A stretch of 1,103 bases of DNA from Escherichia coli (GTDB lineage: Bacteria; Pseudomonadota; Gammaproteobacteria; Enterobacterales; Enterobacteriaceae), in NCBI RefSeq assembly GCF_003334255.1, contig NZ_QOWU01000174.1; one strand, 5' to 3'. A program made the position numbers and the translations under genes. How positions within the stretch are numbered: position 1 is the first letter of the stretch; each line of letters starts with the position of its first letter. Shown piece after piece: positions 3 to 1,103 of this stretch. A model generated the notes under the pieces. It saw only the letters and a list, made by a program, of their open reading frames with translations, had not been told where the DNA came from and searched no databases.

Positions 3-27
3 GTAAGCGTACAGCCTGAACCGTCTG
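3..27 (+). repeat. Putative left terminal inverted repeat (IRL) of the IS66-family element; inner boundary approximate
   Basis: Begins GTAAGCGTACAGCCTGAACCGTCTG. IS66-family termini characteristically start 5'-GTAA. The matching right IR is outside the window, so the length cannot be confirmed. Confidence 0.5.
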
Positions 28-73: not shown

Positions 74-475
74 GTGGGAACCAAAGTGTCAGATATGCAG
101 AAAAATGTGACTCCCGGCAGGCGAAAAGGCTGCCCTAATTATCCTCCCGAATTTAAACAGCAGCTCGTTGCTGCCTCCTGTGAACCCGGGATATCCATCT
201 CAAAACTTGCTCTTGAAAATGGCATTAACGCCAATCTGTTGTTCAAATGGCGACAACAATGGCGCGAGGGAAAGCTGCTATTACCTTCTTCAGAGAGCCC
301 CCAGCTACTTCCTGTGACTCTCGATGCAACTGCCGAACAGCCAGAATCGCTCGCAGAGGACCCGGAAACCCTCAGTATCAGCTGTGAGGTAACGTTCCGG
401 CACGGGACGCTCCGCTTCAATGGCAATGTCAGCGAAAAGCTCCTGACTCTGCTGATACAGGAACTGAAGCGATGA
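74..475 (+). CDS. tnpA: IS66-family OrfA/TnpA, small helix-turn-helix accessory protein (133 aa from the GTG at 74; true start may be GTG 86 or ATG 95)
   Basis: ORF 74..475 in frame 2. The segment ISKLALENGINANLLFKWRQQW looks like an HTH, and the C-terminus is leucine-rich (KLLTLLIQELKR). It is first in the operon and its TGA stop overlaps the tnpB ATG. GGGA at 77..80 lies 5 nt upstream of the in-frame GTG at 86, a plausible Shine-Dalgarno; the in-frame ATG at 95 is another candidate. Confidence 0.85.
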   Translation: MGTKVSDMQKNVTPGRRKGCPNYPPEFKQQLVAASCEPGISISKLALENGINANLLFKWRQQWREGKLLLPSSESPQLLPVTLDATAEQPESLAEDPETLSISCEVTFRHGTLRFNGNVSEKLLTLLIQELKR

Positions 476-819
476 TCCCGTTACCTTCCGGGACCAAAAT
501 TTGGCTGGTTGCCGGTATCACCGATATGAGAAATGGCTTCAACGGCCTGGCTGCGAAAGTACAGACGGCGCTGGAAGACGATCCCATGTCCGGCCATGTT
601 TTCATTTTCCGGGGCCGCAGCGGCAGTCAGGGTAAACTGCTGTGGTCCACCGGTGACGGGCTGTGCCTCCTGACCAAACGGCTGGAGCGTGGGCGCTTCG
701 CCTGGCCGTCAGCCCGTGATGGCAAAGTGTTCCTTACACAGGCGCAGCTGGCGATGCTGCTGGAAGGTATCGACTGGCGACAGCCTAAGCGGCTGCTGAC
801 CTCCCTGACCATGCTGTAA
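472..819 (+). CDS. tnpB: IS66-family OrfB/TnpB accessory protein (115 aa)
   Basis: ORF 472..819 in frame 1: MIPLPSGTKIWLVAGITDMRNGFNGLAAKV...RQPKRLLTSLTML. Size and sequence match my recollection of IS66 Orf2/TnpB. The ATG at 472 overlaps the tnpA TGA at 473..475. AGGA at 459..462 is a plausible RBS 9 nt upstream. Stop is TAA at 817..819. This protein is unrelated to the IS200/IS605 TnpB nuclease. Confidence 0.9.
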   Translation: MIPLPSGTKIWLVAGITDMRNGFNGLAAKVQTALEDDPMSGHVFIFRGRSGSQGKLLWSTGDGLCLLTKRLERGRFAWPSARDGKVFLTQAQLAMLLEGIDWRQPKRLLTSLTML

Positions 820-844
820 ATCTCTTTATCCTGGTTGTCACAGA

Positions 845-870
845 ATAAGCCCGGTAAAATACGGGCTTAT
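845..870 (+). promoter_or_regulatory. Perfect stem-loop (9-bp stem, 8-nt loop) overlapping the tnpC start codon
   Basis: ATAAGCCCG at 845..853 pairs with CGGGCTTAT at 862..870; the loop is GTAAAATA at 854..861. The 3' arm includes the A and T of the tnpC ATG (869..871) and the only SD-like GGG (863..865). No U-tract follows, so it is not a typical intrinsic terminator. Confidence 0.55.
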
Positions 871-1103
871 GAACGACATCTCTTCTGACGACATCCTCCT
901 GCTGAAACAGCGCCTGGCCGAACAGGAAGCGCTGATCCACGCCCTGCAGGAAAAGCTGAGCAACCGGGAGCGCGAAATAGACCATCTGCAGGCGCAGCTG
1001 GATAAACTCCGCCGGATGAACTTCGGCAGTCGTTCCGAAAAAGTCTCCCGCCGTATCGCACAAATGGAAGCCGATCTGAACCGGCTTCAGAAAGAGAGCG
1101 ATA
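869..1103 (+). CDS. tnpC: IS66-family transposase OrfC/TnpC, N-terminal fragment (5' partial; runs off the window)
   Basis: Open frame from ATG 869 to the window end with no stop: MNDISSDDILLLKQRLAEQEALIHALQEKLSNREREIDHLQAQLDKLRRMNFGSRSEKVSRRIAQMEADLNRLQKESD. Hydrophobic residues recur at 3-4 spacing (I9, L12, L16, I23, L26, L30, I37, L40, L44, L47), suggesting a coiled coil. It is absent from the ORF track only because it has no stop within the window. Confidence 0.85.
   Translation, partial: MNDISSDDILLLKQRLAEQEALIHALQEKLSNREREIDHLQAQLDKLRRMNFGSRSEKVSRRIAQMEADLNRLQKESD

Follow-up and report, generated by a model that had tools for sequence, protein, structure and literature searches.

The native tnpC mRNA of the insertion sequence ISEc8 is shown here to be leaderless: it starts with the AUG of the transposase gene itself, at A869 of the window (the whole stretch of DNA analyzed, 1,103 bases or ~1.1 kb, all of it the left end of this IS66-family element), has no Shine-Dalgarno (SD) sequence and lacks both the 5' arm of a hairpin at the tnpB-tnpC junction and the 5' strand of an outer helix that surrounds it (Table 1). 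Since a message that starts at A869 is without the 5' arm and keeps no more than 2 nt of the 3' arm, the hairpin cannot throttle the native message and can act only on RNA derived from upstream. In the reading that we favor, and consider probable, the hairpin is an insulator that silences read-through RNA at tnpC, from which the native leaderless mRNA escapes.

Results

Genetic Organization of the ISEc8 Left End

Megablast with the window detected ISEc8-like sequence, annotated as tnpA, tnpB and tnpC, in 3826 complete genomes of E. coli out of 5426, and thousands of resistance and virulence plasmids carry it as well. A 99.8% identical copy with RefSeq annotation places the three genes at the positions listed in Table 1, with the third running from 869 onward, and the tnpB stop and tnpC ATG of the initial annotation agree with it; in related copies the RefSeq name of the gene is ISEc8 family transposase. 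Assignment to the IS66 family is borne out by the protein models for all three genes, by terminal repeats that begin GTAAGCG and by the ATGA at 472-475, in which the tnpB start overlaps the tnpA stop and places tnpB in the -1 frame. The full TnpC protein, taken from a single chromosomal copy (L001), scores 463 bits against the NCBIfam model transpos_IS66 (cut-off 180), and the 22-nt terminal arms of that copy, 86% complementary and 2398 nt apart, delimit an element of 2442 bp. An 8-bp target-site duplication is absent there, the flanks reading AACAAATG and GGTAAAAG (2491-2502 and 4945-4956), although one copy is uninformative on a family trait; the mismatch suggests that copies rearranged with each other after insertion.

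Two further features of the accessory genes were observed. The tnpA frame is open from GTG 74, upstream of its RefSeq start, and no obvious SD sequence lies 5' of either start codon. An imperfect 21-nt inverted repeat (413-433 and 451-471, 71% complementary, 17 nt spacing) ends exactly at the tnpB ATG and may have a role in tnpA-tnpB coupling.

Table 1. Features of the ISEc8 left end, in window coordinates
Feature	Position	Strand	Basis or remark
Left terminal inverted repeat of ISEc8 (GTAAGCG...)	3..24	+	Context only; aligned to both EDL933 copies
tnpA (accessory protein)	95..475	+	RefSeq start ATG 95; NCBIfam IS66_ISRel24_TnpA, 97 bits, cut-off 74
tnpB (accessory protein)	472..819	+	Stop TAA 817-819; NCBIfam IS66_TnpB, 115 bits, cut-off 50
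Outer helix, 5' strand GUUGUCA	834..840	+	RNAalifold and pair counts; covers most of TTGTCA
Hairpin, 5' arm AUAAGCCCG	845..853	+	Upstream of the transcription start, hence missing from native tnpC mRNA
-10 element TAAAAT of the tnpC promoter, in the hairpin loop	855..860	+	Mapped start 9 nt downstream of the hexamer; family comparison
Hairpin, 3' arm CGGGCUUAU	862..870	+	Promoter discriminator; holds A and U of the start codon
tnpC transcription start, first base of ATG (A869)	869..869	+	EDL933 Cappable-seq
tnpC (DDE transposase), 5' part	869..1103	+	Runs beyond the window end; RefSeq annotation of near-identical copy
Outer helix, 3' strand UGACGAC	886..892	+	tnpC codons 6-8; RNAalifold

A Predicted Two-Helix Fold Encloses the tnpC Start Codon

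The perfect 9-bp stem that the initial annotation had described, with the A and T of the tnpC ATG buried in it, is confirmed: ATAAGCCCG (845-853) is perfectly complementary to CGGGCTTAT (862-870) across the 8-nt loop GTAAAATA (854-861), A869 and T870 of the start codon are paired and G871 is free. The isolated hairpin has a predicted folding energy of -14.3 kcal/mol. Folding of the region 820-900, a check that the annotation had itself proposed, came out in favor of structure, with a predicted -23.3 kcal/mol, z = -3.8 and none of 200 shuffles as stable, and when the window was dinucleotide-shuffled 2000 times, only 66 of the shuffles (3.3%) had any perfect 9-bp stem with a loop of 3-12 nt. The RNAalifold consensus adds a 7-bp outer helix, which together with the 9-bp hairpin encloses the AUG and the first five tnpC codons. 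For RNA that carries both arms, the predicted probability that the AUG is unpaired is ~0.01 and opening the footprint from -15 to +15 would cost 18.2 kcal/mol; for RNA that starts at 867-869, this probability is 0.65-0.77 and opening +1 to +16 would cost 1.5 kcal/mol. The hairpin had originally been proposed as a translational throttle on the transposase, and this idea survives in one part, the predicted occlusion of the AUG on RNA with both arms, and fails in the other, the native message, which starts at A869.

The GGG at 863-865, suggested at the outset to be SD-like, is indeed present, but a role as SD sequence is unsupported and was rejected: just 3 nt separate it from the ATG, and an SD-like 4-mer (AGGA, GGAG or GAGG in -20 to -4) occurs in 0 of 53 representative junctions of related elements.

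No T-tract lies 3' of the stem on either strand (tail GAACGACA on plus, TCTGTGAC on minus) and a terminator scan was negative there, which rules out an intrinsic (Rho-independent) terminator, as the initial annotation had anticipated. In Rfam 15 nothing matched at the gathering score, and hits stayed below threshold, as with ES056 (811-881, minus strand; 17.7 bits vs. 43, E = 4.9). These negative results also weigh against a role at the 3' end of the tnpA-tnpB message or in its processing, be it as a stabilizing stem, as a site for RNase III or as a signal for pausing or termination that lacks a U-tract, a reading to which the position 25 nt after the tnpB stop and the stability of the isolated hairpin would lend themselves; moreover, in unrelated elements the 3' arm again lies at or over the tnpC AUG, which a tnpAB 3' end does not need, and we regard this reading as very unlikely.

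tnpC Transcription Starts on the A of the ATG

For E. coli O157:H7 EDL933, primary transcription starts have been tabulated by Cappable-seq in eight conditions of growth (PMC10469882, supplementary files 5-8). Two plus-strand starts, 346224 and 1275582, both assigned in the tables to 'IS66 family transposase ISEc8', were found in all eight conditions with an RRS of ~9-15, the relative read scores of 346224 being 13.4, 11.5, 14.0, 8.9, 15.3, 10.4, 10.1 and 9.7 (PMC10469882). In RefSeq NZ_CP008957.1 the same positions are the first bases of the coding sequences RS01705 (346224-347762) and RS06320 (1275582-1277120). Up to and across the hairpin, the EDL933 sequence equals that of the window, with 346224 as the A of the start codon, so the mapped start is window A869. 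Cappable-seq reads multi-map between ISEc8 copies, and a start is accordingly not assignable to one copy, while its position within the element is unaffected. The text of the EDL933 paper leaves transposases unmentioned (PMC10469882).

The 5' end on the start codon, the AUG and the absence of an SD sequence are the features of a leaderless message. A near-leaderless tnpC transcript from TAAAAT had been raised in the initial annotation as a low-confidence aside, and it is this aside that the mapped start on the ATG, seen in eight of eight conditions, bears out. The divergent element IS682 of EDL933 agrees: its start 1088264, again present in 8/8 conditions, is the CDS start of RS05275, and its junction reads TTGTAA, 17 bp, TATAAA, 7 nt, ATG, with a 9-bp stem UCAUGGCCG/CGGUCAUGA over the AUG. 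In a third IS66 element of EDL933, truncated and nearby, TATAAT precedes the ATG by 7 nt and an 11-13 bp stem with different arms lies over the AUG. The arm sequences of both elements are unrelated to those of ISEc8, and both cover the AUG. The start tables of K. pneumoniae MGH 78578 held no usable IS66 entry.

As a promoter, the window copy looks weak on paper, with neither a good -35 nor a TGn motif, and its start is nevertheless detected. The -10 TAAAAT matches at 5/6 positions, a spacing of 17 bp offers no better -35 than TGGTTG (2/6) and position -15 is C, not T. A sigma-70 consensus scan of the window reported no promoter because this copy lacks a -35 at 16-18 bp, and the promoter was recognized only through comparison and the mapped starts. 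The initial annotation had proposed a weak promoter pair, TTGTCA (835-840) and TAAAAT (855-860); both hexamers and their 14-bp spacer are there and TAAAAT stands as the -10, but TTGTCA does not hold as a -35, since in addition to the short spacing the hexamer is not conserved (TTGTCG, TTGTTG and TCGACG in relatives) and its changes keep the outer-helix pairing. TTGTCA is more readily accounted for as outer-helix 5' strand.

Transcription around and into ISEc8

A plus-strand start at 345217, found in 7/8 conditions, is situated 141 nt beyond the left end of one EDL933 copy, so that transcription does impinge on the element from outside. Within the element and ahead of the tnpA ATG, the Cappable-seq tables for the eight conditions list no plus-strand start in either EDL933 ISEc8 copy. 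This absence bears on whether tnpC could be expressed mainly from a tnpA-tnpB-tnpC mRNA, with the hairpin as a constitutive throttle on the main message. The ATGA overlap of tnpA and tnpB suggests operon-style expression, and an AUG that is covered by a hairpin and has no SD sequence would suit such a throttle. This arrangement is nonetheless unlikely, as it has to contend with the primary 5' end on the ATG in 8/8 conditions at two ISEc8 copies and IS682, with the lack of a start ahead of tnpA in both copies, and with a family-conserved -10 at a fixed distance from the ATG, which it leaves unexplained.

Three other starts map to the element. On the minus strand, a start at window 75 (EDL933 345430 and 1274788), 20 nt upstream of the tnpA ATG, appears in 8/8 conditions and in both copies; it is directed out of the element through the left inverted repeat, antisense to whatever leader tnpA may have, and could be an outward promoter that activates neighbor genes or an antisense regulator of tnpA. 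A plus-strand start inside tnpA at window 255 (EDL933 345610 and 1274968), with TCAAAT 7 nt upstream, appears only in the four stationary-phase conditions (RRS 2.3-9.9), and RNA from it would carry tnpB and only a truncated tnpA. Finally, an antisense start at +891 of tnpC on the minus strand (EDL933 347115 and 1276473, beyond the window) was found in 8/8 conditions and in both copies.

Compensatory and Wobble Exchanges in ISEc8-Type Relatives

The close-relative set comprises 13 distinct junctions of the ISEc8 type, drawn from viral contigs and metagenomes as well as from plasmids and E. coli genomes. Viral contigs yielded only relatives of 91-98% identity, that is, variants rather than distance, and a metagenome scan with a 14-mer anchor returned mostly chance matches, with IS66 junctions at 7 loci (6 distinct sequences). 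Standard pairs fill 98.1% of the 206 pair cells in the 13 sequences, vs. 34-48% after the 3' partners had been shifted by 1-3 columns. Most stem positions are invariant among these relatives, so that conservation is by itself uninformative and the exchanges carry the information: at pair 8, U.G occurs in 8 sequences, C-G in 2, U-A in 2 and U.U in 1, and at pair 9, G-C in 10, A-U in 2 and G.U in 1. In the outer helix 97.8% of the cells are paired, and the sole exchanges are C-G to U.G and G.U to A-U. The covariation score was matched by 9 of 500 shuffles, a control that the relatedness of the sequences inflates, and double changes occur in two pairs only; covariation in the ISEc8-type group is thus modest, resting on two pairs in related sequences. 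The structure is kept by selection in close relatives, by way of compensatory and wobble exchanges. G.U accounts for 35 of the 206 pair cells (17%), and because the complementary strand would have A.C at each of them, a plus-strand RNA structure is favored over a DNA palindrome.

In the ISEc22/ISKpn24 group, whose TnpB is ~95% identical, a different inner stem, GCC.UGGUA/UACC.CGG(U), ends at -1 in the same place, and the outer helix differs from that of ISEc8 as well, again as a two-tier fold. Position 852 is T in 11 of the 13 distinct close relatives, giving the extended -10 TGG TAAAAT; the window copy has C852. There a C-G pair replaces U.G and strengthens the stem, and the TGn of the extended -10 is lost, both of which should lower TnpC output.

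Disrupted copies were also noted. Many ISEc22-type and related plasmid copies (L002, L004, L011, L008 and L009) have an IS26/IS100 truncation or a tnpC frameshift, with the tnpB-tnpC junction intact. In a metagenome locus (L227), the GTAAGCG... terminal repeat of another IS66-family element follows ...ATGAACGACATCTCTT, 16 nt into tnpC, a nested insertion that leaves promoter and hairpin intact.

A -10 Element at a Fixed Distance from the tnpC ATG across the IS66 Family

For a wider comparison, TnpB relatives from one genome per species were combined with plasmid copies from alpha-, beta- and gammaproteobacteria, giving 81 distinct tnpB-tnpC junctions that were reduced to 53 representatives and aligned on the tnpC ATG; the plasmid tblastn was dominated by enterobacterial copies and distant members were hand-picked. 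Nearly all junctions have a single in-frame ATG beside the homology-predicted tnpC start. A strict TANNNT ends 6-9 nt before this ATG in 37/53 representatives, compared with 0-3 at other offsets from -55 to +24, and most junctions without it have near-matches in its place (CATACT, TATAAA, TTCAAT). In 46 of the 53, the -10-like hexamer and the ATG are 6 or 7 nt apart, and C directly precedes the ATG in 43. TTGTAA, whose TAA is the tnpB stop codon, lies 16-17 bp upstream of the hexamer in 28/53 junctions, and 14 of the 25 junctions without TTGTAA have a TGn extended -10; the two occur together in none (Fisher 2e-6). A -10 with a pyrimidine-purine start, combined with either a -35 or TGn and with no SD sequence, is the hallmark of a promoter whose transcripts begin with the A of the start codon.

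The same alignment bears on a coupling between the two genes, in which ribosomes that end at the tnpB stop would melt the 5' arm and re-initiate at the SD-less AUG, tying TnpC to TnpB translation. With a tnpB-tnpC gap of only 29-30 nt in most relatives, the 5' arm is within reach of a terminating ribosome, and both the missing SD sequence and the co-varying arms would fit. In ISEc8, however, the stem begins 25 nt past the stop codon, outside the footprint of the terminating ribosome, in line with the doubt that the initial annotation had voiced about direct unwinding; across the family the gap ranges from 19 to ~150 nt while the -10-to-ATG distance is constant; and TANNNT, the C at -1 and the alternation of -35 and TGn would go unexplained by a mechanism that the mapped start makes unnecessary. 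Such coupling strikes us as improbable.

The arms were compared by the duplex energy between a spacer segment (-36 to -13) and the segment -8 to +5, within vs. between elements. Pairing within an element averages -9.5 kcal/mol vs. -7.7 kcal/mol between elements (z = -5.4, p = 2e-4, a z-score possibly inflated by kinship among the elements), and four control segment pairs gave z = 0.1, -0.2, -0.8 and -2.1. An own-arm duplex of -11 kcal/mol or better is found in 18/52 representatives, vs. 14% of cross pairs. At least 12 elements have strong stems with unrelated arms, for example GUGGCAAG/CUUGCCAC, CCGACA/UGUCGG, CCCAUG/CAUGGG and GCAUGCGCG/CGCGCAUGC, and in every case their 3' arm stops at the AUG or extends over it; between elements, the arms vary widely in length and the loops in size (3 to 18 nt). 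In the junctions compared, the fold-back arms are recurrent and not universal, with about two thirds of the members lacking a strong stem, and the -10 is nearly universal.

Chance complementarity in a conserved intergenic region, with no function at all, would sit well with the mostly invariant stem positions and with that two-thirds majority, and yet appears highly improbable given how rarely shuffles of the window yield such a stem anywhere, the compensatory and wobble exchanges, the specificity of the self-vs.-cross test for this one segment pair and the three EDL933 elements in which unrelated arms all lie over the AUG.

Plus- and minus-strand folding is about equal family-wide (25 vs. 22 elements), and because the strands fold alike, the strand assignment rests on the ISEc8-type group. 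Arm pairing without family-wide strand asymmetry would also be expected if the inverted repeat worked as DNA, either as an operator for a dimeric repressor (for instance TnpA, which has a helix-turn-helix, or a protein of the host) or as a structural feature of the promoter or discriminator; the palindrome is indeed centered on the -10 of the mapped promoter, and its GC-rich 3' arm is the discriminator. Against this stand the variation in arm sequence, arm length and loop size, which is unlike fixed-spacing half-sites, the G.U cells of the ISEc8 group, which preserve RNA pairing and not DNA symmetry, and the outer helix, which pairs with coding sequence 17 nt into tnpC and is not operator-like. 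We hold a DNA role to be rather improbable.

Burkholderiales-type elements (L023-L076 and similar) show GTAAAC twice, 20 bp apart, at -33 to -28 and -13 to -8 from the tnpC ATG. The tnpB stop lies within one copy (ttGTAAAC) and the -10 is formed by the other (cGTAAACT), and the motif resembles the family's terminal GTAAGC; the pair may be more than a -35 and -10, perhaps a site to which a protein binds. In most elements the base ahead of the -10 hexamer is G.

Discussion

In the insulator model that we prefer, the inverted repeat brackets the tnpC promoter, at which RNA polymerase uses TAAAAT (855-860) and starts at A869. RNA initiated further upstream, whether the tnpA-tnpB message or host read-in, would carry both arms, and on such read-through RNA the hairpin and outer helix, judging from folding and conservation, would enclose the SD-less AUG and block internal tnpC initiation. 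Transposase synthesis would thereby be tied to the element's own weak internal promoter and not to upstream or outside transcription. Two features of a fold-back device are found directly, namely a 3' arm that covers the AUG and a native start downstream of the 5' arm; that read-through RNA folds as predicted, blocks tnpC initiation and has had its arms selected for that purpose is what we infer. A much broader reading would give every IS66-family element a leaderless transposase mRNA from an internal promoter, uncoupled from tnpA and tnpB and protected by a fold-back insulator; TnpC synthesis, and transposition along with it, could then be gated by the condition of the translation apparatus instead of by transcription. 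We consider this extension doubtful. Leaderless AUGs use a different initiation route (70S or IF2-favored) and are relatively favored under some stresses and at low IF3.

The leaderless start explains the missing ribosome-binding site before tnpC. If the transposase comes from its own leaderless transcript, its dosage would be set independently of the two accessory proteins, and if the fold-back shields it from incoming transcription, insertion beside strong host promoters should not activate the element. Should the family-wide reading be true, T852C in ISEc8 would be a one-base setting that tunes promoter and stem together. The regulation of the IS66 family is almost undescribed though the element is very widespread, and the model is testable at one hexamer, two helices and one start; the answer already sat uninterpreted in a published genome-wide start-site table. 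Fold-back protection and leaderless mRNAs are both known classes; in the literature searched, which covered IS66 together with leaderless mRNAs, promoters and stem-loops, neither is described for the IS66 family.

The closest relatives of the proposed device are IS10 (Tn10) and IS50 (Tn5), whose fold-back inhibition against outside promoters was reportedly worked out by Davis, Simons and Kleckner in 1985, Krebs and Reznikoff in 1986 and Schulz and Reznikoff in 1991. As in ISEc8, an inverted repeat straddles the element's own start, the native mRNA keeps the 3' arm only, and read-through RNA folds over the translation start. In IS10 and IS50, however, the device lies at the element end, before a single transposase gene with a leader and SD sequence, whereas in ISEc8 two accessory genes precede it, which puts it 870 nt into the element, and inhibition is predicted; ISEc8 further differs in having the -10 in the loop, a leaderless message and a second helix that reaches into the coding region.

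In IS200, a stem-loop in the tnpA 5'-UTR occludes the SD sequence (Ellis et al. 2015, PMC4513863, as cited in PMC8450116). Insofar as that citing account describes it, IS200 shares with ISEc8 an RNA hairpin at the transposase translation start, which in IS200 keeps expression low; there the hairpin lies inside the native mRNA and is a constitutive throttle of the kind first proposed for tnpC, whereas the native mRNA of ISEc8 excludes it.

Among leaderless bacterial mRNAs are those of lambda cI from PRM and of Tn1721 tetR. Genome-wide sets of starts on start codons exist as well (PMC6161684, PMC3536570). ISEc8 tnpC resembles such messages in its start on the A of the AUG, in the lack of an SD sequence and in a -10 placed 6-8 nt upstream; unlike the other leaderless cases, that of ISEc8 and its IS66 relatives shows conservation throughout an entire IS family and comes together with a hairpin of the fold-back kind.
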